Numbered from the stretch's first letter, positions 252-62,591 are shown. The stretch: DNA of 64,000 bases from Amoebophrya sp. A120 (GCA_905178155.1 CAJINV010000016.1:897386-961385), one strand, 5' to 3'. The notes: generated by a model not told the origin, from the sequence alone. Program-made: numbers and translations.

Positions 252-3200
252 AAAATGATCTTCCTCGACCGGAGAATCGGGGTCGAAGTGTACCCGGTGG
301 ACGGGTGGACCGACCATTTACATGCGTATGCAGTGCAAAAGTATCGTACTCGTACTAATTGCAGTTTATGCATTACAAATCTAGTTCTTAAACGTAAATC
401 CGCATTACAAATTCAAGTCTGTAAGTAATGCTGAGCCAATTTGTATTGCGATTTATACTAGTACGATACAACTTTTGTACAGGATAATGCGCGACTGCAA
501 GCGATCATCCAAACCCGGCACGAGAGTCTGCTCGCAGCAGGTTACAACTGGGGGAACGTGGTGAAGGATGTTGAGCCACTGTACCCAACCGTGAGTTCCC
601 TGGACGAGTTGCAGACGGAGAAGTTACCCGCTTTGCCGGTCAGGAAGTCGAAGCCGGTGTATTGGCAACATCTTCAGGCAATGATGTTAGGTGGGACCAC
701 ATCTTCGCAAAGTACTATGGACAACGACTTGGTGAAATTCCACGACTTCAGTCTCCAATTGCAGACCATCAATGCGAGGTTTGGGATCAAGGACATCGCG
801 TTATCCGACGTGTTTCTTCTCGACAGCTCCGATGGGACGATCGTGAAAATTCTCGATCCCGTCAAGTGCCGGGAAATCTTCGCGCAGGGCTGTCTCAGTT
901 TGAAGGTCGGGGATCGCATTGAAGCATTTTGGAGGAGGCCACTGGATAGCAGCAGTGGTTCTAGTTTGAATCGAAGCGGATCCGCCTCTTTTTCCCGGAA
1001 TCATGGTCGCAGTACTACATCAGGAGCTGCAGGAGCCTCCGCGGCGAGAAGTACAACATCCTCTCCCTCTCACCAGCAAAACCAGTTCCACAAGCACCAA
1101 GCCGACGACTTGCAGCAGATCCAGCAGAGAGGCAGGGAACTTGCCTCGGACAACAACAGCAAAACCACTTGGATCGAGACCCATCCGGTGGAGCGGCGGG
1201 AATTCGTCCGAAGACCGGTTTTCAACTTGCAAAAAGTCCTGATCGTCCGCGACCGGTTCAAAGTTGCAAGGGACCTGACTTCCGTTTTCGACAAAATCAA
1301 AACCGAAAACTTCGACCAGCCGACGGTTGAGAAGATCAAGATGTTCATGCCCGGGTATGATGAGGTCTATCAGAAGGTCCACGGCTTTCCGGTGGGCACG
1401 CGCATCTGGAACAAGATCACCGGCTCCGTGGGCGAAATCGTCGCGGTGGAAAGTAGTTCCATCGGGAACGAACTCTTCGCAACAGTCCGGTTCTGCACTG
1501 ATGTCTGCCGGGAGGTGGAAGTGGCCCAGGCGGTCTTGCAGTTCCCATTGTGGTTTGCGAAACGGGGCTACGCAGTGAACTTTGAGGTCACGTTTGACGA
1601 GTTTGTGTATGTCCGGAATGCGTTTGAATTGGCCATCAGTGACATGGACGAAGAAGCGATTTCGGTGTTACAGGAACCGGTGCAAGAGTACAAGCAGCAG
1701 GAACAAATTGTACAAGCAGCGAATGGACGCGCGAACAATGGCAACCCGAATAATGGTGGTGTACCAGCTAAGAAATCTAAGCCCGCGACCCCGAAATCCA
1801 CTACCTCTGCTTCCAACATCCCTCAAACGGACAAGATCCAGGGCCGGATCCCCGTCGGCGCGGTGGGAATCGTGCGGAACGTCGAGCGGAAATTGGTCAT
1901 GGATAGTGACCACGACGATGGTACTCTGACGGTTGTGTCCGGGAGTACTAACAGTTACCAAATTCTCGACGTGGAATTTCGGTCCCCTCTGCTCGATTTC
2001 GCCTACAGCCGCAAGAAAATTTGGATCGGGGAAGACGCGGACGAGCTGATCAACCGGAACGAGTATAAAGTCGTGAAGAAAATCCGGTTGTTTGACAAGC
2101 ACGGGACCTTCGCTCTCCGCCCGGTGTCGCAAGCCACGCGGTACCAGATTCAGGTGGACGATCCGGTGTGGGGGGAATTAAGCCACTTCAACGCGGAAGC
2201 TGCTTCATCTGAGAGAGGAACTGGACCAGGAGCAGCAGTCGCTGGACATCCTTCTGCTCCACCTGGAGCAGGACCGCAAGGGCCGCACGCTGTGACCACA
2301 CAACCCCCTCTATCGGCTGATGCGATGATGTCAACACCTGTGGTCGTTCCGGCGGCCCGCGCCAAGGAGCCCGCGAAGCCTGCCAACGGGACGATTGCGT
2401 GGCGTCGGGTGCCGTTGGAGTACGTGAACGAAGCCCTGGTGCGTTCGCTGTTCGACGAGGAAACAAAACAAGACTTGATCGACGGTTGGGCGAATAACAG
2501 TCGACAGCTGAAAGAGGATTTGAAGATCATGCGGGCAGTGAGACAGCGACGATTGAGCAACACAGCAAGGACGAAAGCGGAGAACCGAGCGGATGCGGGG
2601 AATTTTTCAGCAGCTGCTGGTAATCGCGGTGGTGGAAATAATAGTAGAAACAACTACCGGGGAAGATCTGTCTCCATCGACCCGTCCTCTGCGACGAGTC
2701 CGAGCATGCATCCCTCATCCTCCGCCAGTCCGTCCCGGGGCACAGAGCCGCACTCCCCAGCGGAGAGTGCCACGTCGCACGGCAGTAGTACGGCGAAAAA
2801 GCGCCGCGACCCCTCTGGTACGAGGCAAAGAGCTGGTGGGCGTGGTGGACCTGAGGCAGCGTCGTCCTCTGGCGCGCGCAGCCATTCCATCGACTCCATG
2901 AGTCCCACAGCAAAAGCACGGACGGAAGCTTACGGAGTGGGCAGTTCTTCTGCCGCGATGAACAGTAAATCTGTTGCATCTCGACCGGTTTCCTCCCCGA
3001 AGCAGGGACCGAGTTCTACTACTCCGAAAGCGCCAGGGGCTGCTGGTGCAACATCATCTCCCGCCGGGTCAACAGCAGCTTCAAAAAGAGTGGCGTCACC
3101 CGCCCCGAAGGCTATGGCGAAACGCGCGGATCATGGGAGTGCTGGCGCGAGGGGGAGAAGCCGGAGTCGGTCGTTCAGCGTGGAGCCGGAGCGGGAGGGT

Positions 3201-5180
3201 GCAGAAGTTGTTATGCAGCCTCCATCGATGACCTCCGCAGCTACTTCGACAACCTACACTGGGACCCCGTTTCCACACACTGGAGGAACAAGTGCAGAAG
3301 TTCCATCTGAACAAGGGCCAAACCAAAGACTCTCGCACCCTACAAGAATTTCTTCCCCACGCGTGGTAGGACCTCATTCTTCAGGCCCTGGTGCCATCCC
3401 GGCCGGGTTCGCCCTCTCTCCCTTGTTGCAAAACGCCCTGGACACCTTTCCGAAGGAATCAATGGAACAAACGAAACCGCCGCATATCACATGTAAAAAT
3501 GTCTGGGTCTGGAAGAGTCATGCTGTTTCTGCATGACACGGAAGGTCTGGCATGGAAGCTCTAGCATCACAGGTTTCGAGAAGCAAGCTTCCGCAATGCC
3601 GAACCCGCATGACAAATCCCCCATTTTCTTTGTGACAGAAAGTGGGCAGCTTTTGCTACCCATGCATGAGAGATTTTTGTGTGTTCTCAAATGCGCATCA
3701 CAAGTTCGGATCCTTCCAGACCCAGACATTTTTGCACTTGATACCGCAGCCGAAGAAGCGACTGACGGCAAAAACGCCGGACCCGGAGTTCATTATGACC
3801 ATCGAGGACCACGGACCAATGGGAGGTGGGTCAACGGCGGTGGATCGTGCGTTGCGTGTTGACAAGTCGGAGGACGAGTTGCTGTTCCTCACCCCCGTGC
3901 CGGAGTCGTCGGAAGCTGGGAAGATGGCGATGCCGGCGACTGTGCCAGAAACGCTTACTTCATCTTCGGACACACCCCCGGCGCAACAGCGCGAGCACCG
4001 CATTGCGTCGAACGTGTTTCAGCAACAGGAACAATTTTCAGCCGGATCCACAGCTGCCTCCTCCAGCACCTGTCCGACGATCGCGGACCAAATCAGGTTC
4101 CAAAAAGCGAAGGAAAAAGCGGAGGAGTTGTTGCGCCGCGTGCCCGTGCAGCCAGTGATGTGGCAACAGGAGAACGCGAAATCGCCACTGGAAATGGTTC
4201 TCTACCCCGCCGAGGAAGATAGCGCTAATTATGCGCAAGATAGAACGAAGATGAAAACCAGCAAAGAGGCCCCCGAAGCAGACGGACAAGTAGAACTGGC
4301 TCGGGCCGCCGTGCCCTTTTCAGTAGAGGACATCGCAGAGGACCTGGACGAGCAGACGAGAACATCAATTGCCGGCGAAGCAGCTGCTGTGCCTAGAACA
4401 ATGACCTCTAGTACAACAACTACAGAGGAACGGACGAAGCGGCGTAGGTTTTCCTCCGGTGAGATTTCCACCGCGTCCACCTCTACCCGAGCGTCCACCT
4501 CCACCCGAGACCCTGCCGGCCGATCTCGATCCGAAGACCCCAATCGCGATGACCACTACGCGCGAAGCCGGTCGGACAGTGAGGATTACGACCGCCCGGC
4601 ATTGGAGTTGCAGCCGAGCAGTCTGCAGTTAGAAAAGGAACAGCGGGAGATCGACATGATTCTGCGACCGGAATTCGAGCGGGTAATGCACATCGAAATG
4701 CCGAAAGATCTTGATGCACCTGTTACCGCCGGAGGAGCAGCGTCGTCCTCGAGTGGGCAGGAAATGAGCACAACTGCAGGAGCACGAGCAGGAGCATCAA
4801 CAGGAAGCAGCAGTGCCAGTTCGTCTCTTGCTGCAAGAGGGAGTGGAACAACAGCAGCAGGTGCTGCTCAGGCGCTGACCTACGCGAGCCCCCCGTCGCC
4901 GAGTGTTGGAGGTAAAATGCTGTGATTGATTTTTGTTGTTGTATAAGCGGTTCGATTCTTTTTCTTTCTCATTGCAGCGAGCTACTTGTTATCGCAATTT
5001 CAAGAATTATATATTATTATTTCGCATTTCCACATCTCAGGTCGCCACCTCCAACCTCCGATGCTGTCGTCTGCTGTCGAAGAAGATTTCCAGCCTGTCT
5101 CCCTTCCGCAGTTAATCGAGCAGAGCTCCCAGGAGTGCGACTCGGTCCCCGCGCTATGCTGGATGAAGTCGCAGAATTGA
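252..5180 (+). CDS. Large low-complexity hypothetical protein, 5'-partial; exons ~252-326, 492-3484, 3749-4911, 5041-5180
   Basis: ORFs 180-428, 558-3536 and 3642-4925 join in frame after removing elements 327-486 and 3485-3743 with one repeat copy each (HLHA|RLQA, KPP|QPKK). A GT-AG intron at 4912-5040 gives a last exon. No recognisable family. Confidence 0.75.
327..486. mobile_element. Introner, family A (TIR tgcaaaagtatcgtact)
   Basis: TAT...ATA ends, inverted repeats, direct repeat ATGCG at 322-326 and 487-491. Confidence 0.9.
3485..3743. mobile_element. Introner, family B (TIR aaaatgtctgggtctggaa)
   Basis: TAT...ATA ends, inverted repeats, direct repeat CCGCA; removal joins two long ORFs in frame. 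Confidence 0.92.
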
Positions 5181-7270: not shown

Positions 7271-7713
7271 CCGATTTCATTCTTTAAGAAATGTTGTCGA
7301 GGCGCCAACCCCCCGATCGCCTTTTATTTATGATTTTGGTTTTGTATTTGTTCCGGCGATCGACATCGAGCGATGTCCTGTGTGGTTGACGAGTGTTGTG
7401 AGGTATGTGCAGTGGCTAACTACTTCGGCGCTTCTGCGCGGTGAGCTTGCTCTGGTTGGCCGCGCCGCTTCGGTTGCGTGCCATCATATTGAGATGGACA
7501 CTACCGTTGTAGTTGTTGACTCGTGTGCGGTTGTGTGAAGATTGTCTTCAACGAAAGAGCGGGAGTGCACCCAATGTGACATCTTCTTCTTCAGGCACAG
7601 TATGACTGGTGGATTTTTTTACGCCGAAGAATATGGCGTCAGCAAAAAGTACGCAGCTGATTGGCGCTCTTTGCAACGCCGATATACTTAAGTACTGCTG
7701 CTAGTTGCGCCGG

Positions 7714-8725
7714 ATGGCGACCTTGTCCCGGAACATCATGCTCTCCATATCAATACCAGGCCAACCAAATTATATCCTTCCGGAGCTCATCACGACTGCA
7801 TTGGCAGCAACATCCGGGCGGGCGGAGATGTTTCTGACGATCCCGACGCGGGGGATATGCGACCCCTTGCAGGACAACAGAAGGGGGGTCACATCCTGAT
7901 CTCAAGGTTTCGGGCACGACCCAAGAAGATGACCACAGAAGATGATTCCGGAGGACGGTTTTGTTGATGAAGCGCTCGTGCACATTATCCTATGTAAAAC
8001 CGTCCCCACCCAAAAGTTGTAATGCAAATCTGCATGCTGAAAATGTTTCTCATGCGGAGCCCCATGGTAGCCATTTTCAAATGCTATCTGGTAGTTTGTC
8101 ATGCTGGAATCACGATAAGGTAGCCAATTTGTCATGCCGCTGCACCAGCTAAACAGGATTACACTACGAACCCGATAAACTTGTCATGCTTGACAGCCAA
8201 AACTTGGGGATTTGTGTTGCAGATTTGACAGCTTGACTATACAGAGGGTGGGGACGTTTTTACTCAGGATACACATCGCTTGCGAGCAGAACATTTTCCC
8301 CACTACCTCGCCGAAAACCAAGAGGAAACGCTTCCTGAAGGTGCATGAAACCTTCATGCAAATCTATGAAGAGGCAGAAGGTACAGGGCCTGGAAGAAGT
8401 GCTTCTGCAGTGTCTTTTTGCTTGACAGTAGTTCGTTGCGTCTTCAAGTACAGAAGAAGTGCCAATGATGAATGTCAACGTTGTACATGTTGAGGACAAC
8501 TAATACAGTCGCTTTTGTCGTGTGCATGTTGAGTATACTAGTCTACTCAACATCTTGTCTCATGCTTTTCAAGCGCTCATCATCTAAATCTTTCTCACAA
8601 CTACAGGTGACAGCAGCCAAATCAACAGCGTGCGAGAGACGTACAGTGCGAGTTTATCGAAAGGGAAATCCGTCGGGGGCACACCGCTTCTTCACACCGA
8701 AAATTTATTGCTTCGCTATCATTAG
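7714..8725 (+). CDS. Hypothetical protein exons, possibly the 5' part of the 8811-14138 gene
   Basis: Removing element 7986-8271 gives MIPEDGFVDEALVH|IACEQNIFP. A GT-AG intron is plausible at 8381-8606. Links up- and downstream are unresolved. Confidence 0.4.
7986..8271. mobile_element. Introner, family D (TIR taaaa.cgtccccaccc)
   Basis: TAT...ATA ends, inverted repeats, direct repeat CACAT. Confidence 0.9.
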
Positions 8726-8810: not shown

Positions 8811-11800
8811 ATGTACTGTGAGTCCAGAGGTGATAAGGAAGTAGCAGGAGGTAAATTAATAAATCGTATATTCTCGCGGTCGCGGTCGTGGTGCGGATGT
8901 AGTCGCTCGCATTTTTCCCTTGCAGACTCTGCACTGCAAAAGCGGTGGGAGCAGCTCCAGGTTATTACCAAGACGGTGCCGGACCAGTTTGTCTGTATTG
9001 GTACGATCCCAGTTGTGACATCGGCGACCACGGCCTCCGTCGCTGCGGCAGGCTCTTCCTCGACTTCTGCCTCTTCCCCGGTGGTCAGCAGCCCCATCAT
9101 TCGCGTCACCACGCCGCCGTTCTACAGCACGAGGAATAACAATTTGAACCCGCAAAATAGTTTTGGCACGACCTCTACCTCGACCTCCAGTCGGGCGCCG
9201 AGCGCAGCGGCTGCGTCCTCGTCCACCTCGCCCCGGAAAAATTCACCACCGGAACAAGGGGGCCGTGTGCGTTTGGGAGCAGGCTCACCAACTTTTCCAA
9301 ACGCGGCAGTTGCACCAGCAGGAGGACCAGCAGCCGCAAATATGACCGCGAAGGAGCAGTACAGCTCGACGGGAGCGGCCCGCGCCAGGGTGGAGCGCGA
9401 AGTGCACGCGGTGGGATGCAGTGGGGGAGGTGGGAGCAGTGGCAGCAGCAGCTCTTCAAGTTCTACTACTACAGCTGGTGGCAAGAAATACAACACCAAT
9501 AATTATCCACCGAACAAACCACCACCGCTCGTTGCCAACAAGGGTGCGGAACCCATGACGCAGGCGGAATTCCTGGACGCGAATGCGTACGATATAACTC
9601 CTGCTCTTGGTTCAGCTAGGTCCTCAAATCCCTCATCTTCGAAAGAGATAGTACACAGATGTACTAGCCCGTCATCCAGCACGACAACGAGAGGACTCGA
9701 CACATCATCATCATCGGCGGCAAGTTCTTCCAGCAGCAGCTCTAGCTCATCCAGTGCTCCTGCGGGCGAGGGAGAAAATATTACAGAGTCAAAAAAAGGA
9801 ACATCATCTTCTTCATCTTCACCCGGAGGTCGTCGGGAAGATGCGTCAACCATCCCAAGGACACCGCCCACGCCCCCGTTGCCTGAAACAAATATTAAAC
9901 TATCGCACCTTGCAAATAATAATATTAACCGAGATCATCGAGACAAGGCACTGCACCAGCAGTCGGCGCAACAGCTAGGGACCACCACGACGAGCAAGAT
10001 CTTGACCAGAAACAAAACGCGGCGACGCAGAAAATCTTCCGCGGCAAGAACACAGCTGCTGCAGCAAAACCCGGGAAGTCATCTGAGCTCCCTGAACAGT
10101 TCCGCAGTGCTGGAAAGCTCGGACGAGGACGGAGAGATAAAGCCGCTGGACATGTCCGAAGTGAAAGCTAGCATCGGAAGGGCCATGAGACACAAACAGG
10201 GCATAGTTGGGGGTTCCTACGGGACAAGCAGTTCGCCCGAGGACGGGGATGATGTACTGACTTTTGAACGTCTGTTTCATCCGTGTTGCAAAATAGAACG
10301 CACGTATTCGTATGAATGTAGGTTTTGGCTTTGATGTTGTAACTAATGGACTGCACGAGGGGAAATTGGCATGATGGAATTTGGATTTTTTGCATGTAAA
10401 AAAAAAACAAACTCTAAAAAACTCAGGGCGACGGGGGCGTCTACAACCACCCTCACGGTGGGGGCCACAGTTCCGTCGGGAGTGAGGACGCGGGATACAC
10501 GAGAGAGGCTGAATCTCCGGACCATTTCAACAGTAGCTCCTCGTCGTCCGCTTCCGGCTCAGAAAGTGTCGACCAAAGAAAACCCGTCTTGTTCCGCCCG
10601 CTGGCGCGAGGAGGGAACAAGTCGCCGGCTTCTGCAGCTGGTGGACCTCCACTTCCAGGGGGGATGGGCACAGCGAACAAACGGGTGAACAATAAACAGG
10701 TGAAGCCGTGTAGAAATGTTGTCCTCTCGACGTAACCTAAATTGTGTGGGTACTCATGAATGAGGTATGATCTTCAAATAAATGATATGCGTTCATCTAC
10801 TTGTGACGCGAGCGCGGAAAAGGAGATGCACATATCTTGCATGAAGAACAAGAAGTGCACAGTATGATTACACAGACCTTCTCGCCTACCCCTTCTCTCT
10901 CTGCACCCAAAACAGGCCGCTACGACGCTCCGCGAGGTTTCGGTCACGACCGTGAAGCCGCAGAAGAGAGCGTCTCTTTCCACCTCAGACGCAACAGACA
11001 CCAGCTACGGTGTCTACCCGGGGCCCTCCCCCGGCGTCGCGTCTTTCCGGACCGGTTGCAATTCGGGTCATTATCTCGGTGGTAAATCTTCCCAAGTGTC
11101 TGTGTCATCCTATGGCGTTCTCAAACGTTACATTCTCAAGTGTTACATGAATTTGTGATGCAAGAATGGCAAAAGTCAAAGCAGGGAGGTTGCACCTGTA
11201 GCATTACAAACTCCGCACAGATTTAGGCGCTGTTTAGCCTTTCCAGATTTGTCATGCGAAGTAGCTTCACCCTGTGGATGTTGATCCTCATTTTGCATGA
11301 CAAATTCATGTAACAGCTGAGAATGTAACAGTTGAGAACGCCATACATCCCGTCGCAGCCAGGCCAGCTCGAGCTTTGTGACTGTGGCATCGCCTGGTGG
11401 TGAGAATTCCTCCTCTCCGCTGCTGAGAACGGCAGGACCTGGTCTTGATGGGAGCAGAAGTAGCGGTGTACTTTCAGAAGTCACGAGGAGTGAAAATGAT
11501 AACGGTGGGACCACAACGACAAAGAACGACGCCGCACTTCTAAGGCCCTCTGGTACTTCTAGTGCCTGCTCGTCAAAGCCGCCGAGACTAACTGGCCGCG
11601 AGTCGATCGAGAGCATGAGCTCTTGCCTCTCGAGGGACGAAGAGATGGACGGGAACGACGAAGACGGGGTGGAGCGGGCTAGTGTAGTAGACATCACCGG
11701 AAGTGCTAAAGCTAATGCAGCGGCGGACGATCATGTTGAACTCGACGCCGACCACTCTGGGGTCACTGGATGTAAAAATACACCAACTACCTCAGGCCCT

Positions 11801-14138
11801 GGCGGTAATACAACTACATCGTTGCAGGTGCAGCAGAGCCCAGCCGCCGGTAGTTCAATATCATCTTCGGCTAGTACTAGAAGTGCACAACTTCCAGGTC
11901 GCCCGCCCACGCTGCCAACGAAGAAGAACTCCTCAGCGGCAACAAAATCCGCTCCCTCTGCAAAACTCAGGACGTCAGAGTCTGCAACTTCAGGCACGCA
12001 AGATGATGAACATCAAGTCTCTCCTATTTTATCCGGAGGAGGTTGCACTAGTAGTGCGAGCAATTCTACCTGTTCCGTTCCGTCCCCTACAGGAGCCACT
12101 GCTTCGAAGCAGCACCAGCAGCAGTTTCGAAAACAAAACGTCCCGACTTTCACTGCACCTGCAGCCGGCGCACGACCCGCCGCGAGCTTGACGAGCTCGC
12201 TGCTTTCTCATGCCGCAAGCAGCAGTGCAAGTATGAGCGCCGGGACCACAGCCGCTGGAAATAAAATAGATTTGGTAAATACGCAGCCGGTAATGTTTCC
12301 AGGAACAACAGCCGGTAATAGTAAATTATCCGGTGCAACGTCTACAGCATCGAGGGGTGCAGCTAGTGGTCACAGCTCCTCCGGGTCGCAGAGCTATTCT
12401 TCCGGTAGGTATGCAAAAAAAACCAAATAAAGTTTCGTACTCGTTGTATGTATTCTTGCAGTACAACAGCATGACAGATCCGGTTATAATTCTTGCCTAG
12501 TTCAGCATTTTTACACGTTCTGTTTTTCTTTGTGGAAAAAGTTGCTGCTAATGCCGCTATTTCTACTCAATAGTACGAAAGCGAATACTTTTGCAATGCA
12601 TGATAGGGAAGACGTGGTGATGCGCGGGAACAACAGCAATCACGGAGCCGGAGGTGGCGGTGTAAACTCTTCCTTTTCCTCTAGGTTTTCATCTGATGGT
12701 GCTCCTCGGGGAGGTGGAACAAAAAGCAACACCAGCAAAGCTTCTTCTTCGTTCAAGAACCGACGGGCGAATTTGCTCGATTCGTTAAACACAAGTGATG
12801 AGGATGATGACGATGATAGTCACCCTGCTTTCTCGAGTTCCAATGAGGGCGGGGGCAACTCAAGCACAACGTCGGGCGCAGCGATGGTCGTTGGTGGCTC
12901 CTCTGGTGCGACGTCCTCGACGGCCCACCAACAACATCCTTTCGCGTGGGTCAAGACAGCAGGTTTGACAGGTGGCTGCAACCATTTGGCTGGAGCTGTG
13001 CCGAGCTCCAAACCGGGCGGGACGAGCAAGAGTCACCAAGTTCATCCTGGAACTAGTGGAAGCTTGAGCAGCAGTGGGCGGGCTGTGAACTACAGCAATT
13101 TTAATCACGCAGTAATGTCGACCGGGACCACGCCGGCCGACAGACTGCACGCGATGCAGAGCCGGCAGAGCCAGACGCACGCCGTGAAGGTGATTTTGGA
13201 GAAGAAAAGCTATCAGGAACAGCTGCTCCGATTAAAGCACAACGTGGACAAGGTTTCGAACGAAGACGACTGGAACGACTTAACCGAGGTAGAGCGGGAC
13301 TTCTCGACGAAGCTCGGCTACCAGTTTCTAAGCGTCACCGGGGGAGCTGCTAGTGCTACAACCGCAGGAGCAGGAGCTACTGCAGCACCCTCCGGAGGAG
13401 CCCCCGCCGGTCCTCAAAGTGGTCAGCAGGGCAACAAGAATCCGATAGGCAAAGCCGTTTTCCACTTGCTCAGTGTGCTGATAACGCAGAGTATCCACAG
13501 TAAAGTTCCCGTACACGTACAAATGCAGTCTCTGCATGACAAAACTTGCCTTCAATCCTAGTCCAGCATGACAAGTTGGACTCTGCAAGGTTGCGAAATT
13601 TGTCATGCATTTTGTACATGTGCAGGAAATTTACATTGCATACAGAGTGACATGTACGCTCGGAATGTGGACCAGGACTGGAATCCGGACCGCTTCAACG
13701 TTATGGTAGTGTCAGGATGGAAATCGACAAAGTTGAAATGATTTGTAATGCATAAAATGCATGACCAGGCGTACGTGTGTTGCAGAGCAGGCAAGTGAGC
13801 CCGATTGTAATCCTGTTTGGGGTTAGAGCTCGAGCTGCTAAAGTAGCATGAGAAAACTAGTCTTCTTTGCCTAAACAGCATGACAAACTGGATTTAGACG
13901 GAGCCGAGAGCTGTCATGCACCGCTTAGAAATTGGGCTTCGAACTGGCATCGATTTCATGCATTACAAGTTATTTGTGTAGTGGTTTCGGTCAGTTTAGC
14001 ATTACAAGTTATTTCAACTTTGGCGATTTCAATCCTGACGCTTCCATAAACGTGCACCGGGCATGCATGAAAGCGCGAATCACGTACTATGACGAGATTA
14101 TTCGCAACTACTTAAATGGAGGTAGTGCAGCTGGGTGA
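8811..14138 (+). CDS. Ser/Thr/Gly-rich hypothetical protein with an ordered C-terminal region; multi-exon, start uncertain
   Basis: ORFs 8811-10334, 11378-12430, 12530-13561 and 13932-14138 are joined by GT-AG introns 10254-10426, 10700-10915, 12409-12606 and by elements 11111-11345, 13492-13642, 13702-14048. Ends ...ITQSDMYARNVDQDWNPDRFNVHRACMKARITYYDEIIRNYLNGGSAAG*. Confidence 0.7.
11111..11345. mobile_element. Introner, family G
   Basis: Perfect 14-bp TIR tatggcgttctcaa / ttgagaacgccata, extending imperfectly; direct repeat CATCC. Confidence 0.92.
12410..12602. mobile_element. Decayed family-A introner inside GT-AG intron 12409-12606
   Basis: Residual tatgca...tttcgtactcgt and tagtacga...atacttttgcaatgcatg; repeat GTAGG/ATAGG. 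Confidence 0.7.
13492..13642. mobile_element. Introner, family H
   Basis: tatccacagtaaagttcccgtacacgtacaaa pairs with tttgtacatgtgcaggaaatttacattgcata; direct repeat CAGAG. Confidence 0.88.
13702..14048. mobile_element. Introner, family I
   Basis: ~50-bp imperfect TIR (tatggtagtgtcaggatggaaatcgacaaagttgaaat...); direct repeat AACGT. Confidence 0.9.

Positions 14139-15643: not shown

Positions 15644-15645
<2 letters not shown>

Positions 15646-15695
<50 letters not shown>
15646..15695 (+). repeat. (GT)25 microsatellite
   Basis: Direct reading. Confidence 0.97.
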
Positions 15696-18544: not shown

Positions 18545-18806
18545 TATCAAATGCAAAAATGTCTGGGTCAGGAAGATTGCGAGATTTGTCATGCACATTT
18601 TGCATGACTCCTGATGTCTGTGATGCATGCCCTAGGATCAGAAATTTTTTGAGGGCTTTCTGATGCGTATCCTGAATGACAAATGCCCTCTCCGTGTAGC
18701 ACAAAATCGAATCCTCTAGCTAGTCATGCAACACAGATTCTCTTAGAATCCGAAGACAGCATCAGAAGTTGCATCCTTCCAGACCCAGACATTTTTACAA
18801 TCCATA
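18545..18806. mobile_element. Family-B element at an apparently non-coding site
   Basis: TAT...ATA ends, family-B TIRs, direct repeat TTTTA; flanks give no convincing protein. Confidence 0.88.
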
Positions 18807-18910: not shown

Positions 18911-19397
18911 ACAACGTACCTCTACCTGGTAGGCACGCAACAGCATCTGCTAGAGGGCAAGATGCGTGATGTGCGGCGCGTTGAGCTCGCAGCTGAGGCT
19001 GCTGCACGTCTAAAGACCGTGGCATAATTTATCAAAATGACGCTAGCAGCTTGAACCGCATTGATGCAGCCATCAGGAACAGGGAATTGAGATTGCCGGA
19101 GCTCACACAGACACCGGCCCCCCTAGGGGACGCATAGGCCCCTCCTGGCTCCGATGTTCACCTGTTGAGATGATTTTGCTTTCTTGTTTCACTTTGATCA
19201 GGTCGAAGTTAGTAGGTGCGAAAATGAAGTAAGAACTGTGAACAGAATTCGGGACACGGGCACTACGTTCGCTTGTCAAATCATGAGATATTAAAATGAA
19301 TGAGTATACCAGAAATCTTCAACAACATACGAGGGCGAGGCTAGCCACTTTCGAAGGCCCGAGGAACTAAACTAGAGAAGTAATATAAAAAAAGATC

Positions 19398-47000: not shown

Positions 47001-48286
47001 TGGCTGCGGTGCCTTTCTGCAATACAGAGCTGATTTGTTTACCCAAATTCAGCATCAGAAATTTCGTTTTGATATGGGGAGGGGGGATTTTTCCTTGCCA
47101 TAGTCACAAGAAAACCAGCGAAGATCTTCCTCTTCCTGAAGATGATCCTGAGCAGAACGATCATACAAACTGCGACAACGTGACGAGGCCAGAAAGCGAC
47201 CTCCAACCCCTCGGCTTTATACGGCTCGTTCTTTCCCTCAACACGCCGCAAAACCCGTTTTCCACCACCGACGTTAATGTGCTAAAACTGATATGGGAGT
47301 CGTGCACAACTCCCCGTCTTCGCCCCAGTTGCATGCACAGTACCAAGAAGTTCGCCCCTTGTATCTTCGCATGACGGGTTGTTCTTCTTGCAGCCCCAGC
47401 CGCACTGCGATTCTCTGTGGATACTTAATTTCATTATTGTCATGCAAAATTCGCATTCATTCTATCTTGCCGACGTGGTTTCTATATATCGCTGTTCTAA
47501 ACTTCACGACTAGAACATGAGGGGAAGAACGAGCAGTTCTGTGCCTTTTCATAACTGAACCACGAAATAGTGAACACGTACCTTCCTCCGGTGCTGGAAA
47601 TCTCCCCGCAGGAGCGCCAGTACGTGGAGCAGGTGAAGAGGTTCGGCCAGGCTGCGCAGAACTCCGGCGGCAGCACTTTGTCCGACTTCTTTCTAAAGTG
47701 CAAAGCCTGCAGTCGGGCCTTCACGAGCAAGCACCGCGCGATTTTGAAGGCGGTGCTGGAGAAGATGAAGCACGCGAACCCTCTGGGCTTCTTGTACAAC
47801 GAATTGCTGTCGGAAATGCAAAAGAACAAGGGGGTCCAACAGAGCGCGCTAGACCGGATCTTGCGGGAGTTGCAGGAGCAGCAGCTGATCATCCAGTCGA
47901 ACCCGGAGCAAACCGGGCAGCGGGTGAAGTTGAATGTATGCATTGCAAATATATATGTCCTCTGAGTCTGGAAAGTAGTGGGAACTAAGTTGTAGTGCTA
48001 GGTTGGCATCCTGGGAAATCTGTATTGCATAACCAACATTTGTCATGCAAAAACGCAGTTTGATGTTCTCATGCGGACTGCCTAGGAGAGAGCGCTCCGG
48101 AAAGTTGTCATGCTGGGCTCCTCCTGCATTTGGAAGCGTCATGCACATTGTAGCATCACAAGTTTCCAGACATCCAGGGATAATATTTGCACCTGATAGA
48201 ACTGCGGAACGGAGTACTTGAAGCAGAAATACGAGGAGATGCTGGAACTTTTCTCGGCCGGAGTAGACGGGGACGACGGTGACTAG
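44033..48286 (+). CDS. ORC2: Origin recognition complex subunit 2-like (divergent)
   Basis: ORC2-like motifs in the expected order: NLCVSGLGSKYAMLRRF, ILLVVHCYE, IRLVLSLN, VNTYLPPVLE, C-terminal LDRILRELQEQQLI; 5 introners plus GT-AG introns 44637-44816 and 46277-46457. Confidence 0.72.
44347..44555. mobile_element. Introner, family F (inverted relative to 19729-19938)
   Basis: TAT...ATA ends; direct repeat CGAGA. Confidence 0.93.
45937..46197. mobile_element. Introner, family B
   Basis: TAT...ATA ends; direct repeat GAAAG. Confidence 0.92.
46779..47102. mobile_element. Introner, family C
   Basis: TAT...ATA ends; direct repeat GTCAC; interior similar to 23797-24119 and 61130-61456. Confidence 0.92.
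47292..47553. mobile_element. Introner, family E (diverged)
   Basis: tatgggagtcgtgcacaactcccc ... catgaggggaag...gtgccttttcata; direct repeat ACTGA. Confidence 0.82.
47937..48198. mobile_element. Introner, family B (diverged)
   Basis: TAT...ATA ends; repeat GAATG/GAACT. Confidence 0.85.
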
Positions 48287-52189: not shown

Positions 52190-53097
52190 ATGCCGAAGGA
52201 GGTGAATATGGTAAACGAGATGAAGCTATGCTGTGCAAAAGTATCGTACTAGTATGAATTGCATTACAAACTGGCTCAGCATTACAAAGGTAATTTGTAA
52301 TGCGGATTTCCCTTGATTATTAGATTTGTAATGCATGACTGCGATTAGTACGAGTGCGATACTTTTGCAGTGCATAGAAGCTCTGGAAAGACAGGGTAGA
52401 CGGTGAGCTCAACTCCGCAGCCGAGTGGGAAGCGAACTGGGGCTTTTTGAAGGCAGAGAAGAAAGTGGAAGCGCCACCAGAAGGTATGATCATCATGATG
52501 TTGATAAGAAGTAGAACCGAAACCGACCTTGTCACGGCCCTGTCTTGGCACCACGACAGCAACTATGAACAGAAGCAAATGTATACCCAAACACTACTAT
52601 CAGGTAAATTTAGTGTCGAAAGACCACCCGCCCCCGCTTCCCCAAAGCCATCGGTAACGGGCGAAGATGCGGTGGAGCTGACCGCGAAACTGAGGTATAC
52701 CATCAATCGCGGAAAAACGCCGAAGGAAATCCAGGCCAGACCATTGACAACATCGCAGGTATGGACTTATTCTACAAACGACCCCCTCTGAATTTCTATG
52801 GTACGGAAACGCATGTTGTTCCCTTCCGTTTTCGTTCATGTTATGGTCAAGCAGGTCATTCTATTTCTATCCCGAAAGGAATTTCCCGGGCACGACATGT
52901 GTATTTGACGTTCATTCGCATCACCTCTTGATCCTGAAGCAAAAAATGATAAAGAAAGTAGGACGCAAATCTGTATCTGCAATGAAAAAAATCGCACCAT
53001 TGCACAAAATCAGGAATTGGGCTGGAGGCCGCCGATCGAACTGTTTGGGCGGGGCGACAATGGTGTCAAGCGGGACCCCGGAATTTGGCCGCAGTAG
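52190..53097 (+). CDS. Small probable ciliary microtubule-inner protein (C20orf85/CIMIP1-like); exons 52190-52226, 52382-52483, 52604-52758, 53014-53097
   Basis: Reconstructed MPKEVNMVNEMKLWKDRVDGELNSAAEWEANWGFLK...PKEIQARPLTTSQELGWR; the WK.R..E...W..NWGFL and P.TT.Q..GW motifs match that family from memory. Confidence 0.68.
52227..52376. mobile_element. Introner, family A
   Basis: TAT...ATA ends; direct repeat GAAGC. Confidence 0.92.
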
Positions 53098-53941: not shown

Positions 53942-55146
53942 GTGAATCAACCTTGTTTACTTCTGCTTCTCAATACAATTACTTTCGTCTGTAGTAGGGG
54001 AGAGACGCCGTTCCCCGCCAGGGCGGGAGATCTTGTGGTAGTTACCATCGAGGACCGCTGCTGTCCTTGCAGTCGCTACTGTTTTTCCTTCCGCTCGTTT
54101 AAATCTGAAGTATTCGTATCTAAAATGTATGTAATCAGCAGTTTTACCCTCAAGCCTGACTGCATGATGGGCGGTGAACAACTTTGCCCACTAGGAGCGC
54201 TTCGTCGACGGCGTAGGCGATCGAACAACCTTTCCGCGATTTTTTTCCTCTTCGCAAGAAGCGGGCCTGGTTTTTGTAACTTTTTGTGGCTGCAACAAGC
54301 TCGGAGCACCACCACGACAGCATCCAGTTCATCTTCATCGTCTGAAGTTGTACAACCGGCTACTCCGCCGCCGGCGAAGAACTTATTTTTCGAACAGCAA
54401 GAAGTAGAGCTCGAGCACGACGCGCAGCCGGACTTTGTCTCGTCTTCGTTCCTGCGAGAAGAGGACGCCGGCGCAGATGAGCTGCGACAGGTGCCACAAA
54501 AAGCAGTCCAGAAAACAAGCACGACCGCTGCAGGATATGAAACTACTGCTCCCCAGGCAATGGTAGATCACAACGACCTCCCGGAAAGTAGAACGGACAC
54601 TTTTACATTTGATATGAAGGGCGGCGAGCAGGCGGGCATGAAATTCCAGGACAGTGTCAAGATCGCCTCGAACCTGGCCAATGTCGGCGACGCCAAGATA
54701 TCCTGAGTAAAAACGTCCCCACCCCAGAGTCAAGTTGGGATTTTGGCAAGACAAATCGAGCATCTTTGGGACTCACGCATGACAAGTTTGGCTGCGCAGT
54801 GTAGTCGTGCCTAGCTAGTTCAAACGCATCACAGATCCAGTCTGTCATCCTGATTAGCGCATGACAGATTCCCAAACGCCACTAGGTAATTCCTCTCCTG
54901 GAGAGCCGCATGACACACATTCTGAGCCTGCAGATCCGCATGACAGCTATGGGGTGGGGATGTTTTTACATATGATACAAGACCGTGCTGATTCACTCCT
55001 GGTCGACGACGCATTCGCAATTGACGGAAGAGCAGCGGATCTCGGCGGGCGTCAAGCCGGAGTCGATTCGTGTTTCGGTCGGGTTCGAAGATTTGGAAGA
55101 CCTGAAGCAAGACTTCAAGCAGGCCCTGCTCGCGAGTCAGAAGTAA
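53942..55146 (+). CDS. C-terminal ~90 aa of an O-acetylhomoserine sulfhydrylase (MetY/Met17 family) fused to an unrelated N-terminal region; possibly a pseudogene
   Basis: FTFDMKGGEQAGMKFQDSVKIASNLANVGDAK|TVLIHSWSTTHSQLTEEQRISAGVKPESIRVSVGFEDLEDLKQDFKQAL; homology begins ~54601 and no PLP-binding domain is seen upstream. Confidence 0.7.
54699..54977. mobile_element. Introner, family D
   Basis: TAT...ATA ends; direct repeat CAAGA. Confidence 0.92.
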
Positions 55147-57010: not shown

Positions 57011-60000
57011 ATGCAAGAGCAGGACCATCACCAGCAGCAGCGGCGCGACGTGCTGCGCCTTCGCATCCGGCGGTCTCTTTGCCCCCCACCGCAGATGACT
57101 ATTTCTAGTAGTGGTTCATCTGTACTAGCTGCACATCGACCTGGTGCAATAAAGCAGGGTCAACAACATCATGATGCCGCAACTACCTCTGCACCAGATG
57201 ATCCGGAACTCAACTATTACAAGCACTGCGGCACGGTGATTCCTCGGGACACACTGCACGAAGCGTATGTGTCCTACGACAGCATAAGGACACGACCAGA
57301 GGAGCGTCAGTCGTCGTCCGACGACGGCGGCGGTGCCGGTAGTGGTGTTGATAGCACCACAAGCGGCTCGTCAACATCTCCTCTACTTCGGCTGAAGGAC
57401 AACAGTCTCTGGCTTGCGTCAGCACGATCAGGAACAAATTCTTCCCCCAGCTCCTCGTCATCCTCCTCCACCTCGAAAAGAAAACAAAACTCGTTGTCGT
57501 TCTACTTCCGCCTGCGGATTGTGTCCAGCAAGTCAATCCCGAAAAACGAACTGTGGCTCTCCTCCCACTTGGCGCATAATTTCGGGTCGGATATTTGTGG
57601 CTCCTTCATCGCGGAGTTGCGCCTAGTACCTTCGTGGTCTACTTCGCTGGGTGAAGATAGTGTTGTCGGTGTAGAAGGAGCTCCTCCTGCTGCAGCTAAA
57701 CCGTCGGGCCGAGGCGGAACAGGATTAAAATCCGCTTCACAAAGTAGACAAAGTGCGCATGTTGAACGAAGTAGAGCACCACCTCCAGAACAAGTATTGC
57801 AATGCCTCTGCATCGAGGACGGTAGCATGAACATCCTCTCTACTTCCCCTATGCAACAACACCTCGCGCCGCGGCTCTGCTCCAAAGCTCACCTCGAGCT
57901 GCTCGGTGGGACAGCCGCTGGGCTGTTGACGAGGAATTTGCCAGAAGACGTCATGGCGAACGTCGCGGACTTATCAGAATGAAAAATCCCCCCTCCCCAT
58001 ATCAAAATGAAGTCTCTGATGCTGGATTTGCGTACACAAATCAGATTTGTGTTGCTGGCGAGGACTCCAGACCCACGCTAAGCCTGAGTAGACAGGTTTT
58101 GGCCTAGGCGCTTTGCATGACAGACGTCTCCGCTGTGGCTAAAACAACATGACAAACCGCCTGTGGAATGCGGCGGAGCTTGTGGAGTTGCCTTCATGCA
58201 ACACAGAGGCGATTTGTGGTCACAAATCAGCAACGCAAATTTTCGAAAACGCGCCTTGTCAATATGGGGAGGGAGGATTTTTCCTTTTGATAGGACTCCC
58301 TGCGGATTCTTTGCGGCACGGTGCCCCGGCTTATGACAGTGCACAACTCCCCCTCCCCCTCATTTTGTCATGCAGAATCTCAAATCCAGTCGCTCTCGCT
58401 GCCTTGTGGCACTGTTTGCATGACAAGTTCTGGTAGCCCAAATAGCACTACACTCCAGTGTAAATTTGTCATGCAAAACCCGCACTCTTGCTGATGCTTG
58501 TGTTGCCGTTCATGCTAATATACAAATGAGGGGGAGGGGGAGATGTGCAATCTCATACGGCTCGTCGCGGTCAACGAGGTTTTCACCCTGCCGTTGGCTT
58601 TGTGGCCCGCGGGATTTGAGTTCTTGGCCCGGATGGAGCGGAACGGGCAGGTCAGGTTTGAGGCGAGCAGCGTCGCGCCGCAGCAGCCAGCTGGGATAGC
58701 ATTGAACAACTCAGGAGCTATGAGTTCTTACAACGCAACCTCATCGGGCGGCGCACTAGGGGGAACGGAACCAGGGGTCGTGAAGAATCCGTTGACTCTT
58801 CCAGCAGCATCCTCCGCCGCGCACCGGTTTTTGGTTGGACGGCACGTCAAAACCGCAGGAACCGATGCTTATTCCCAACAAGGCGGCACTGAAACAACCG
58901 AAGCTTCATTTGGCGCTGCCACAAGAGCACCAGGGGGGACATCTTCACGAGCAGCACAGGGAAACGACCCGGCCGGGTCCAGCATACTAGAAGCGGGCGC
59001 GGCTGCTGCTAGTAGAAGTGCTGCAAGTAGGACACATCATCTTCCGCCAAAGCCGAAAGCCAAACTGCTGCCTTGGATGTCTCGCCAGAAACCGAGTCCA
59101 GATATCAGCTACCGACAGGCGATTGAGCAGCAGTTTTTGAACGTCACAGACTCGGTGTTCGATCTGTTTATGCCCTTTGGATTTCCCAGTGTTAATATGG
59201 GAACATCAAATGGGGCATCGAAGAACACAGGTGAACAAACATCAACCGGAACTACAACGAGAAACACAGCGACCGAATCCGTGGTCGCAAAGATCGCGAA
59301 GACGGTGACGAAAAAGTGCAACCCGCACCCGCTCTGGGACTACAGCTTTCTGCCAACGTTCACTTTTCGGGTAAAGAAGTTAGAGGTGGCGGGGATGGAA
59401 ATCGGAGCGGACGACGAGATGAAGAACAAAGAGGATTTGCAAACAAATTATGGGATGAAAGCAGAACGAAGAAATGTCGGCGGCTACATTTCCTTCCCGG
59501 AAACAGCGGTGGAGCTGGTGTCGAAGGAAGAGGATTCACCACCAGGTGAGGACACGAGTGGTCCTGGCGGTGGAGGTCGCGCACCTCCAAGTTATAGAAG
59601 CTCCGTATTGATGCTGATGGACCATTACATCGAGGATAGCGAGGACGAGGAAAATTCGCTCGATAATTATCCGCAGCTGCGCGCCAGGGGTCAGAATACA
59701 GAAAATAATGACGGTCGTGCAGATGGTGCGCAACAACTTGACTACTACAAGACAAAAGCCCGCCCTCTGCAGCACCAGCAGACCACTGCTACGCCCTTTT
59801 CCCTGTTTCACTTCGCGAACCACTTACCGGCACCGTGCTTGCCGTGTTTGCGAGAAAATGCAGGGATTCTGAGGAAAGTTATGCACGATATACTATCTAC
59901 ACCGTTTGATGCCGCGAGCGCGGCCACTAGGACCACAACTACAACTAGCACAGTACCCCCCGTGCTTCTCTTCGCCGGCCCGCGCAGCACGGGGAAGCGG

Positions 60001-62591
60001 GGGTTACCCGCGATGCTTTGCCAGATGCTCGGGTTTGAATACAAAGAGATCAACTGCGTCGCGGATCCGGAGTTTACGACCATAGAAGAGTCTTTGCCGA
60101 AGCTGGTTCGCGGAATGTCCATGACGACCGCGGGTGAAGTAGATGGTTCCTCCACCTCCTCCGTTCGCAAGCGTCGTGCTCCTGGCAAGAAACACAACCA
60201 CCACGACCTCCTGCTCCCCACCCTCCTGCACCTGCGTCGGTGCGATTCGCTGTTCAAGGGGAATCCTATGCAAGAAAACCGGGTGGTGTTGCAGCAAAAG
60301 CAAGCGGCGACGGTCAAGCTGGTAGTTGAGAAACAGTTGAGAACTACGTCTAGGAGGGCAAGAATACGTCGAGGAGGACCACGAGCGAGTAGTAGTAGTC
60401 ATCTTCCTTTCATCCTCGTTTTTTCTTGTGAGGAAATGGATTCTGTGGGAAACGTGTTTCTGGAGGAAGTCGTTCAGAAGGTGCTGACCTTCAAATTGCC
60501 CGACGAGGAATCGAGGACAGTGGCGTTGGAGCGGTTCCTGGGTCGTGCGAGGGGAGCGAGCAGTGGCAGCAGTGCTCCTTCTGCCAGTAGTACGGCTCTT
60601 CAAAAGCCGCTTGTTGCAGGAGATGGACAACTCCTGTCGCAAGGACGAGCAGGAGAGGAGCCATCACAGTCTTTACTATCGCAGTTGCCCTCGTCAACAA
60701 GAACTGCAGACCAGACTTTTCAATTCGATTCGAAACCCTTCCAACCCACCGAGTTCCTGCACAAATACTTAGCCTCCAAAACCACCGGATTCTCTTTCAC
60801 CGAGCTGGAACTCCTTGCTTTGCGCTGCAAGGAAAAATGCGAAAAACAAGATCATGCGGATGAAATGCGGGCAGGAACCAATTCTCCCGGCGAGGTTGGT
60901 GCAACAGGAGGAAATAAAATGGAAAGTGTAAAAAACAAGCAGAAAGAACCTCTGCCGGGCCGAAATTATTCTACCAGCGTAAAAACATTATCAGCCAGCG
61001 CAGCGGCAGCTTCCTTTCTTCTTCTCCCCGAAGACGTGGCGGATTCTCTGATTCAGGAAATTAAGCAAGACTGCATGTCCGCGAAAAAGGATCTGACGAA
61101 GCAGGTCAAACTGAGCAAAAAAGACATTTTATCAAAACGAAAAATCCCCCCTCCCCATATCGAAGCGGTATGATTCCGAAAATTTGTGTTGCTGATTTGA
61201 GACCACAAATCGCGCCTGTCTTGCAAGAAGACAAGCGCAGAGGCTGCCGCGCCATTATGGAAGCGATTTGGCATGCTGTTGGGCCTAGGGGGCGCCCGTT
61301 TGTAATGCTAAGCAACGAACTAGACCCAAACGCCCCTGCCTATGCTGAGGATCTGGCTGCGATGCCTTACTGCAAGACAGCGCGCATTTGCGTACGGAAA
61401 TCCCGCATCACAGATTTCCGTTTTGATATGGGGAGGGGGGATGTTTCATTTTGATAGATTTCCTGGGACGACATTGGCGGCATGGAGACCGCGAAAAAAG
61501 AAATTTTGGATCTGATCGAACTACCACTGTCTACGGATCCGAAAACGAAAAAACTTTTTTCTAGTGGAATAAACAAGCAACAACAACAGCAAACGAAACT
61601 CCGGTCCGGCGTCCTGCTTTTCGGCCCGCCGGGGACGGGAAAAACCTTGCTCGCCCGAACGGTGGCCGCGGAGTGCGAAGTTTCGTTTCTCTCTGTCAAG
61701 GGGCCGGAGCTGCTCTCCATGTACATCGGCGAATCGGAAGCGAACGTGCGCAAAGTGTTTCAGTCGGCCAAGGACTGTCTGCCCTCCGTGCTGTTCTTCG
61801 ACGAGCTAGATAGTTTGGCCCCGGCGCGGGGCAAAGGGTCCGATTCCGGCGGCGTCATGGACCGGATTGTGTCGCAATTGTTGACCGAATTGGACCAAGT
61901 GCCGAGCAAAGTCTTCGTCCTGGGCGCGACCAATCGGCCGGACTTGCTGGATTCGTCGCTCTTGCGGCCCGGAAGACTGGACCGGACGATCTACCTCGGG
62001 ATCAGCCAGGACAAGCTGCCGATTTTGAAGGCCGCCACGAGGAAGCTGGCAATCGGGAGAGAGGTGGACTTGGCAAAGATCGCCGCGCAACTGCCGGCGG
62101 CCTTTACGGGCGCGGACACGGCAAACCTGGCCCAGGAGGCGTACCAGCGGGCTTTGCAAGAACGAACGGACTTTATCAAGTTCGAGCTGTGCGAGGGCCA
62201 GGACGTAAAGGTGACGACGTTTTTGCTCGAAGTCGAAAAGATTGCAGAGGAAATTAACGAAAGCGCAACAGCGCAAAATGAAATCAGCTCCTCGGCAGAC
62301 ACACAATCAGGTTTTTCGAAAATCGCGGACGGAGTTTGGGAGAAAATGGCCACCGAGTTAGGTGTCGCTGTAGAAACTACATCAGGCGTAGAAGAGGACG
62401 ACACTGGAGCAGGTGGTGAAGTCGTGCCCAGGAGCAGCAGCAGGCGTCAGATGTTTCTAGCGAAGTCACTGCTAGAAATCCCAGTGAAGGAGAAACATTT
62501 CTTACAAGCACTGGAAGTGTGCCACCCATCTGTGACAAAAAAGGAACTTGAGAAATACGAACTGTTGGCAAAAGAGTACAGAAATGCATAA
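57011..62591 (+). CDS. PEX6: Peroxisomal AAA ATPase PEX6; exons 57011-57971, 58298-58331, 58563-61129, 61462-62591
   Basis: D2 domain ISWDDIGG...SGVLLFGPPGTGKTLLA...SVKGPELLSMYIGESEANVR...FFDELDSLAPARGKGSDSGGVMDRIVSQLLTELD; degenerate D1 Walker A (GPRSTGKR). Confidence 0.92.
57972..58292. mobile_element. Introner, family C (opposite orientation to 61130-61456)
   Basis: TAT...ATA ends; direct repeat GGACT. Confidence 0.92.
58332..58557. mobile_element. Introner, family E
   Basis: TAT...ATA ends; direct repeat CGGCT; interior similar to 20424-20646. Confidence 0.92.
61130..61456. mobile_element. Introner, family C
   Basis: TAT...ATA ends; repeat CATTT/GATTT; removal restores ISWDDIGG. Confidence 0.92.

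Follow-up and report, generated by a model that had tools for sequence, protein, structure and literature searches.

TAT...ATA introners of Amoebophrya sp. A120 share a 5-bp repeat and an internal GCATNACA motif, and are probably removed from RNA at a fixed offset

The stretch of the Amoebophrya sp. A120 genome analysed here (64,000 nucleotides, referred to below as the window) contains 35 insertions between positions 327 and 61456, all of which start with TAT, end with ATA and are flanked by a 5-bp direct repeat lying flush with these ends. They share an internal motif, GCATNACA, paired at a spacing of 31–33 bp, they occur in both orientations, and in annotated proteins they are removed with a net loss of the element plus 5 nt. 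They are the published A120 introners, on which two activities probably act: one external cut-and-paste transposase, which moves the DNA, and a separate hairpin-guided step, which removes the element from RNA at a fixed offset.

The elements themselves are largely known. Farhat 2021 (PMC7789003) described in the same genome inverted repeats starting with TAT across 1,954 families, with direct repeats of 3–5 nt and removal supported by RNA. The inverted repeat was given as TAT, seven variable nucleotides and at least three A, with a hairpin, non-canonical borders and, in the accessible text, no transposase. A 5-bp repeat appears there in the legend of Fig. S19, and the border position is called unknown in the legend of Fig. 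3. The rule of TAT ends shared across families, put forward in the first-pass annotation of the window, is real but was overstated, being already published for this genome. Gozashti 2025 (PMC12130899) lists A120 terminal inverted repeat (TIR) DNA families of about 149, 209, 260 and 305 bp, superfamily unknown, with a 5-bp target-site duplication (TSD) for fam19 (assigned manually), fam183 and fam36, and with both TIRs and integrase-like ORFs for fam38. Its automated TSD calls run from 2 to 6, the families are held to be diverse in origin, and the accessible part gives no shared motif; they are likened to the present families by description. What is refined here is the shared motif, the register of the cut, the independence of orientation, and the tolerance of changes in TAT/ATA and in the repeat. 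In particular, repeat length and position are variable in the accessible account of PMC7789003, whereas the elements of the window all have a 5-bp repeat, and their register narrows to 1–2; the motif and the orientation independence are additions to it.

The elements are 149–347 bp long and sum to 8,323 bp, or 13% of the window, compared with 17% of the assembly in the accessible part of PMC7789003. They form six multi-copy families and three singletons, where about eight families had been noted. The 150-bp family lies at 327..486, 13492..13642 (divergent), 23611..23759 (following an exon of only 12 nt), 28833..28987, 29716..29866, 35362..35511, 35547..35702 and 52227..52376. The 260-bp family lies at 3485..3743, 18545..18806, 35755..36016, 36698..36949, 37024..37289, 38920..39171, 39518..39774, 45937..46197 and 47937..48198, and the 168-bp element at 35154..35321 is likely to be a shortened copy of it. 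The 285-bp family is found at 7986..8271, 20052..20335 and 54699..54977; the 212-bp family at 19729..19938, 29432..29648, 37395..37613 and 44347..44555, the last being an inverted copy of the first with 94–96% identity; the 225-bp family at 20424..20646, 47292..47553 (divergent) and 58332..58557; and the 320-bp family at 23286..23593, 23797..24119, 46779..47102, 57972..58292 and 61130..61456. Singletons of 235 and 347 bp lie at 11111..11345 and 13702..14048, and a 36th element, related to the former, has lost its left end at the window start (1..251).

The repeat is exact around 30 of the 35 elements. The other five carry one or two mismatches: at position 4 for 19729 (silent), position 2 for 20052, position 3 for 38920, positions 4–5 for 47937 and position 1 for 61130. 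These counts of exact and mismatched repeats agree with the first-pass annotation, as does the finding of no strong target-site preference at the insertion sites. The first base of the upstream repeat copy is A8/C12/G9/T6; the count previously given (A8/C11/G10/T6) is that of the downstream copy.

Several elements interrupt genes, the first three of which are on the plus strand. A γ-carbonic-anhydrase-like (γ-CA) gene (19389..20693) holds three (19729, 20052 and 20424). A Mei2-like gene (33738..40839, protein P0241) holds the nine from 35154 to 39518, the last of these within the RRM, together with five GT-AG introns, and the gene of P0242 (44033..48286) holds the five from 44347 to 47937 with two GT-AG introns. 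Element 54699 lies in a MetY-like gene and 61130 in an AAA ATPase gene. Three exons in the window are 100% identical to the annotated A120 proteins P0121, P0241 and P0242.

The TAT rule was checked by a control scan of the window for inverted arms with a flanking repeat, in which TAT was not required. At an arm identity of at least 15/20, a repeat length of 5 gave 26 matches, of which 25 were TAT/TAT, and repeat lengths of 6, 7, 8 and 9 gave 0, 1, 0 and 0. At 13/20 or better the window gave 43 matches, 28 of them TAT/TAT, compared with 3–9 in five Markov simulations, none of them TAT/TAT. The TIRs of the different families are not simply dissimilar, as had been thought: all 70 ends begin with TAT, and positions 11, 12 and 13 are A in 58, 64 and 63 of them. 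The elements are MITE-like, being short, non-coding, bounded by TIRs, flanked by a TSD of fixed length, high in copy number and inserted in either orientation. On the plus strand 33 of the 35 fold with z < −2 (12 shuffles each), and end-to-end folding holds for nearly all in either direction, with stem positions 4–7 paired in only 14–21 of the 35. Comparison with Rfam gave no match at gathering score.

The motif GCATNACA is found inside every element, mostly as same-direction pairs 31–33 bp apart, and the families are therefore not independent of each other. There are 171 sites in the 8,323 nt of element sequence, where shuffles give 8.9; the remaining 55,677 nt of the window hold 52. Pairs at 31–33 bp number 38 against 4.3 at random, or 11 against 1.2 when one copy per family is counted. 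Among 290 elements from related metagenome loci, 287 carry at least two sites, and 213 of these 287 have a pair at 30–33 bp (87/128 outside the size class of the bait). The core of the motif changes at 2.4% compared with 10.4% for other inner sites, about half of this extra conservation being an artefact of a definition based on neighbours. In the open-access literature, no paper was found that describes the motif or a newer mechanism.

These observations bear on whether the families have a common origin. PMC12130899, in its accessible part, derives A120 introners from diverse TIR, LTR and non-LTR elements, and the interiors of the present families do not align, with cross-family identity mostly below 60%. 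Several unrelated transposon superfamilies could thus have acquired the motif convergently, as a site for a host protein of, for example, chromatin or splicing. We consider this unlikely: the end consensus, the repeat length and the motif spacing are common to all families here, and either half of an element can carry the motif, in both directions, some copies having it in one direction only, which suits binding to double-stranded DNA. In the arrangement that we propose, one DDE transposase would bind the GCATNACA pairs, three helical turns apart, nick at the terminal TA and attack the target with a 5-bp stagger.

Our first guess for this enzyme, a tentative one, is an integrase-like transposase of the IS3EU/GingerRoot/Ginger2 kind. 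As described in PMC10045372 and PMC2836005, IS3EU and GingerRoot have TA..TA termini and a 6-bp TSD, IS481EU has TNT..AYA termini and a TSD of about 4, 15 or 25 bp, and Ginger2 has a TSD of 4–5 bp. The present elements have the TA..TA termini of IS3EU/GingerRoot, but their TSD is 5 bp and the window holds no 6-bp matches. Among the integrase-like transposons described in the accessible parts of these two papers, no family combines TAT..ATA with a fixed 5-bp TSD. No transposase was found among the 62 ORFs of the window, which supports the earlier description of the elements as non-autonomous. Six longer copies (417–834 bp, with one doubtful pairing of 1,255 bp) gave no Pfam match in 8 ORFs, and no autonomous partner with the same ends was found among 222 bait-family ends with flanks of up to 4 kb. 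Viral contigs searched with two TIR patterns gave no matches, and a 1,088-bp pairing in one metagenome locus (L002) proved to be a chance match.

Turning to removal, the net loss is element plus 5 nt at all 15 annotated junctions tested (nine in P0241, five in P0242 and one in P0121), in agreement with the first-pass expectation of such junctions without GT-AG. Two comparisons are independent of the annotation: γ-CA aligns with its A25 ortholog over 175 aa with no gaps only when all three junctions are joined at +5, and the two halves of MetY line up in order with 7kb0, at its residues 375 and 378. Orthologous proteins, compared at the protein level, lack the insert; the related loci contained no orthologous DNA. 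Of the junctions reported earlier, those in γ-CA, Mei2 and MetY are verified. The name PEX6, given to the AAA ATPase gene, is unconfirmed, because the matches listed for it are one unnamed A120 protein and CDC48/VCP proteins; in this gene only the 61130 junction was tested.

Contigs of two sequencing runs were also compared. Three partial contig pieces of run X2, among eight listed, end exactly at predicted joints, with X2 breaks at 28826 (element 28833), 38917 (element 38920) and 47553 (element 47292). None of the 15 joint rows listed, of 1,291, is from X2. Contigs of run X5 read through the elements at even depth, one of them continuing through 47553. Our guess is that X2 is RNA. The annotation and X2 possibly share data. 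Run X9 was discarded as splicing evidence: it contributed just 43 reads, each of them on an element end, and does not represent the exons of this strain.

A hairpin with a direct repeat is the classic substrate both of IES-like elimination and of reverse-transcriptase jumps. Run X2 has no RNA label on record, as would suit elimination of the DNA at some life stage, or a jump across the hairpin. Either is extremely improbable: the X5 contigs retain the elements, template jumping would not hold to a single register, and retained elements break the reading frame in 35 of 35 cases (34 stops and one frameshift), so that proteins such as γ-CA need real removal.

The first-pass annotation inferred a single machinery for mobilisation and excision, which would recognise TAT/ATA, the terminal stem and the 5-nt duplication. 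Both steps do use the same ends, and in the 287 related copies TAT/ATA is intact in 271, with single changes in 16, and is more conserved than the repeats, which are exact in 235 (changes in TAT/ATA run at 0.9% and those in the repeats at 2.3% or more per copy, so that 16 TAT/ATA changes stand where 39 would be expected). However, the repeat mismatch rate of 4.5% fits neutral decay, and in the annotation 38920, 47937 and 61130 are removed at net +5 despite one or two mismatches, so that a perfect repeat is not needed. Moreover, the RNA cut, given a fixed register, falls within the repeats, while that of a transposase is flush with the element ends, and TAT/ATA changes and the weak pairing of stem positions 4–7 further count against this reading. 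We regard it as very unlikely; a transposase for mobility with a separate step for RNA removal fits better. In this second step the terminal stem would bring the ends together in RNA in either orientation, with the 5' cut about 1 nt ahead of TAT and the 3' cut about 4 nt past ATA. The repeat would not be read, and would only make the removal scarless.

The mismatched repeats allow the register to be bounded at four junctions, assuming one fixed register for all. Element 38920 permits registers 0–2 (Thr in P0241, with the X2 break at 38917), 20052 permits 0–3 (Glu, as in A25), 61130 permits 0–4 (Asp in P0121) and 47937 permits 1–5 (Cys, conserved in A25 and AT5). Given a fixed register, the cut is thus 1–2 nt before TAT and 4–3 nt after ATA. 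Register 1 is the likely one; register 2 is improbable, and a variable register no less so. Codon scores favour the upstream repeat copy as exonic at positions 1–4 (n=29, p=0.03). Flush cuts (registers 0 and 5) are ruled out under a fixed register, as is register 4. GT-AG is possible in one element of the 35 (28833, in register 4 only), and GA-AG only at 57972; these counts had been given correctly, but neither can be the cut under a fixed register, and an AT-AC register at 7986 had been omitted.

What then makes the cut? The GT/GC-AG borders of canonical U2 introns are absent from all but one element. We incline slightly towards a spliceosome lacking U1, for which N|UAU would serve as a relaxed form of the G|UA donor, and AUA as the point from which the 3' cut is measured. 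Register 1 places TA on +2/+3 of a GTA donor, with which all seven canonical donors seen begin; most spliceosomal proteins and U2/U4/U5/U6 are kept in A120; and element introns alternate with GT-AG introns within the same genes. All three points weigh against a spliceosome-independent removal, in which, as has been suggested for the nonconventional introns of euglenids, an endonuclease-ligase would place its cuts a set distance from the hairpin base, releasing the RNA in linear or circular form. There is no excess of G at the donor position (63/215, compared with 30% in flanks) and none of AG at the acceptor was seen, while a U-run near the 3' end is a feature of the elements and not of the canonical introns of the window, so that the likeness to spliceosomal signals comes down to two bases. 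This lack of dinucleotide preference at either cut, the folding of nearly all elements in both directions and the failure to find U1 in A120 favour the spliceosome-independent route, as does the equal use of orientations (57 same and 54 opposite). A 5'/3' asymmetry of TAT variants at p=0.03 was lost (p=0.26) when strand was called in a second way. The Euglena code described in the accessible part of PMC12501133 has a similar short 5' and long 3' offset from a paired triplet. On balance we hold this route to be doubtful.

The accessible parts of PMC12501133 and PMC11282704 show how far the euglenid comparison goes. Those introns are likewise of MITE-like origin, with a TIR stem joining the ends and no GT-AG. 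Their cuts, however, lie 3 nt and 5–6 nt from the paired triplet, compared with 1–2 and 4–3 here, and they have a CAG/CTG triplet, a required purine at the exon start and reported circular products, whereas here the triplet is TAT/ATA and no base preference was seen. The elements depart from the euglenid signature N3CDG ... CH'GN5-6|R, in that their invariant triplet is TAT/ATA and no purine rule was seen. The introns of Fritillaria borealis are also MITE-derived, with TIR and TSD, and are removed by an adapted U2 spliceosome, with AG-AC and AG-AT as their preferred dinucleotides (PMC11282704, accessible part); the analogous A-N acceptor would here fall in register 4, and under a fixed register both 38920 and 20052 speak against it by exclusion.

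A more ambitious reading would unite all TAT families of A120 in one transposon superfamily, moved by a single, hitherto undescribed integrase-like transposase acting on GCATNACA pairs and removed by a ruler blind to dinucleotide and orientation, whose cuts would lie 1 nt ahead of UAU and 4 nt beyond AUA. We offer it as speculative. If true, it would represent a second splicing code, convergent with that of Euglena, by which any insertion is scarless, and which would be legible genome-wide from copies with mismatched repeats. Such repeats occur in about 18% of copies (52/287), so that the A120 RNA-seq already available should settle the register at thousands of junctions, and a fixed, dinucleotide-free register, if true, would correct many annotated borders. 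The motif GCATNACA also offers a means of fishing for the missing transposase, and it speaks for a single origin of families that are now classed as diverse.

Scanning the window identified 35 elements of 149–347 bp with TAT at the start, ATA at the end and a flanking 5-bp direct repeat, which is exact in 30 and has 1–2 mismatches in five (those starting at 19729, 20052, 38920, 47937 and 61130), just as the first-pass annotation had described. They form six multi-copy families and three singletons. A control scan of the window required nothing more than an inverted repeat bordered by an exact repeat, with no demand for TAT. At a repeat length of 5 and arm identity of at least 15/20, TAT/TAT was present in 25 of 26 matches; lengths 6–9 gave 0–1 matches each, the 18 matches at length 4 were inner sub-palindromes, and simulated sequence gave no TAT/TAT matches.

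Every gene scored in the window is on the + strand; 30 of the 35 element sites score as coding, compared to 51% of random sites. Insertions cluster at 23286–24119 and 35154–37613, leaving micro-exons, and after element removal 12 of the 34 neighbour distances in the window do not exceed 108 nt (12, 30, 32, 34, 35 and upwards). Such clusters may be read as local hopping, or as a target preference near earlier copies. The window also contains a (TG)n microsatellite (15641–15702) and two GC-rich stretches (62–67%; 24500–27500 and 5800–7500) in which each strand has long open frames and no element lies; the frames tested there gave no Pfam matches.

Three exons match annotated Amoebophrya sp. A120 proteins at 100% identity, and the elements are already known, in general and from this genome. 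The accessible parts of Farhat et al. (2021; PMC7789003) describe 29,850 inverted-repeat copies in 1,954 A120 families, having TAT followed by seven variable bases and then at least three A, and RNA-supported introns with direct repeats of 3–5 nt (text) or 5 bp (Fig. S19 legend). The core of the finding, namely the TAT rule, the direct repeats and the RNA-supported introns, is thus already published for A120. The accessible parts of Gozashti et al. (2025; PMC12130899) include A120 TIR families whose sizes match, with superfamily entered as unknown, and give a 5-bp target site duplication (TSD) for three of 21 A120 rows.

All 15 annotated junctions tested equal the element plus 5 nt: nine in the Mei2-like protein P0241, five in P0242 and one in the AAA ATPase P0121. 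The gene models concerned were built from transcript alignments. Independently of these models, gamma-CA aligns without gaps to its A25 ortholog only at +5, across three junctions, and the two halves of MetY are colinear with a solved structure. Of the eight contig pieces listed for sequencing run X2, which is guessed to be RNA, the three partial ones stop at the leftmost joints predicted, namely 28826, 38917 and 47553; these are piece ends rather than skipped lengths. Together, these observations give outside support to 20 of the 35 junctions. The remaining 15 rest on frame continuity. Long frames open only when the length removed belongs to the right frame class: at least 60 open codons on each side are then present at 21 of 35 junctions, compared to 6–9 otherwise.

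Some further observations concern the sequencing runs and one gene model. Contigs of run X5 pass through elements 35154 and 47292. RNA reads of run X9 at 37024–37057 and 35790–35841 match element ends only and then continue into other flanks, so the families also occur elsewhere in that sample, in part unspliced or from DNA. An unspliced X2 contig of 3,328 nt (40136–43463), of even depth, extends 2.6 kb past the Mei2-like stop; a long 3' UTR could explain it, as could an unannotated transcript or DNA. In the MetY region (53840–55143), the 286-codon frame preceding element 54699 matches MetY over no more than its last 34 residues, and the gene model upstream therefore needs other introns or a fusion.

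The position of the cut can be expressed as a register r, the number of upstream-repeat bases that leave with the intron. The mismatched repeats allow r of 0–2 at 38920 (Thr in P0241; X2 break at 38917), 1–5 at 47937 (Cys, kept in A25 and AT5), 0–3 at 20052 (the residue is Glu, as in A25; Glu is present in 46 of the 67 homologues scored and Gln in 17) and 0–4 at 61130. If the register is fixed, these sequence limits would leave r = 1 or 2. Codon scores, which among the related metagenome loci listed favour the upstream repeat copy as exonic at positions 1–4 (p = 0.03, n = 29), point weakly to low r. At r = 1 the intron start N-TAT overlays the GTA of canonical donors (7/7 in element-bearing genes), and in one event, at 47937, a change of the intronic base to G has created GT. 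The GT-AG and GA-AG cases noted in the first-pass annotation both have r = 4, and would lie outside this range if the register is fixed. The seven canonical GT-AG introns (34080–46505) have A-rich ends that lack a pyrimidine tract; in one of them TACTAAC stands immediately 5' of AG (44816), as if the branch point were near the acceptor.

Families are inserted both ways in + strand genes of the window, and elements 19729 and 44347 are inverted copies, 94–96% identical. Among 111 classified copies the orientations number 57 and 54, strand being assigned by a codon model that was right in 27/27 window cases. Use of both orientations requires a symmetric removal signal and directs attention to the terminal stem. 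The stem consists of 3 bp, followed by weak pairing at 4–7 and then a long arm; the outer TAT/ATA is paired in part of the folding models only.

No excess of G or AG was seen at the predicted cut places, which counts against a plain spliceosomal reading. On balance, the most likely route of RNA removal would be a U1-less spliceosome guided by the hairpin. Removal by an endonuclease and ligase, as considered for euglenids, is possible but distinctly less probable. A single machinery that both moves and excises the elements by reading the 5-nt duplication, as first suggested, is unlikely; the non-canonical removal of element plus 5 that went with that suggestion agrees with every annotated junction tested.

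All 35 elements contain the motif GCAT(G/C/T)ACA(A/G)(A/G). There are 171 sites in the elements against 8.9 in shuffles, with 52 elsewhere in the window, the matrix having been trained on these same elements. Same-direction pairs 31–33 bp apart number 38 against 4.3 at random and occur in seven of eight families. BLAST of the window found no further full copies, except a 36th element (1–251), cut at its left end by the window start, which carries paired motif sites at 66 and 98 and has relatives in four of the metagenome loci listed.

A metagenome pattern scan, baited with one family, covered at least 158 overlapping loci (483 kb) of an assembly that may or may not be close to A120. Among the matches listed, 234 of 254 unbiased hits have TAT/TAT at length 5, and 287 of 290 elements have at least two motif sites. 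In the loci listed, spacings peak at 31–33 (others being 18–20, 39, 53–54, 59 and 64), and the site nearest the element end is mostly 30–49 bp away. Between nearest neighbours in these loci the motif core changes at 2.4%, close to per-copy repeat decay, against 10.4% for other inner sites; TAT/ATA changes at 0.9%. Selection for jumping probably preserves the motif, and selection for removal probably acts on TAT/ATA as well. For a plant MITE, binding of subterminal repeats by a transposase is reported (PMC1636448).

We propose that the elements move by cut-and-paste transposition with a 5-bp stagger, using an enzyme encoded elsewhere. Their ends and repeats recall the TA-type ends and 4–6-bp TSDs of integrase-like superfamilies in the accessible parts of PMC10045372, and those of PMC12130899 record for A120 a TIR family, fam38, that carries integrase-like ORFs. 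However, IS3EU/GingerRoot has a 6-bp TSD (PMC10045372) and the A120 elements 5 bp, and therefore no membership is claimed. Two longer metagenome copies, L030 632–1465 (834 bp) and L063 3862–4492 (631 bp), are bordered by exact 5-bp repeats and have motif sites only close to their ends; they gave no Pfam matches and are candidate deletion derivatives of an autonomous element.

In the literature searched, no description of the register clue or the internal motif was met; the figures of Farhat et al. and Gozashti et al., Table S4 of the former and two supplement files of the latter lay outside the search and may bear on novelty. Between them, the register clue and the motif allow an outstanding question to be tested on data that already exist.
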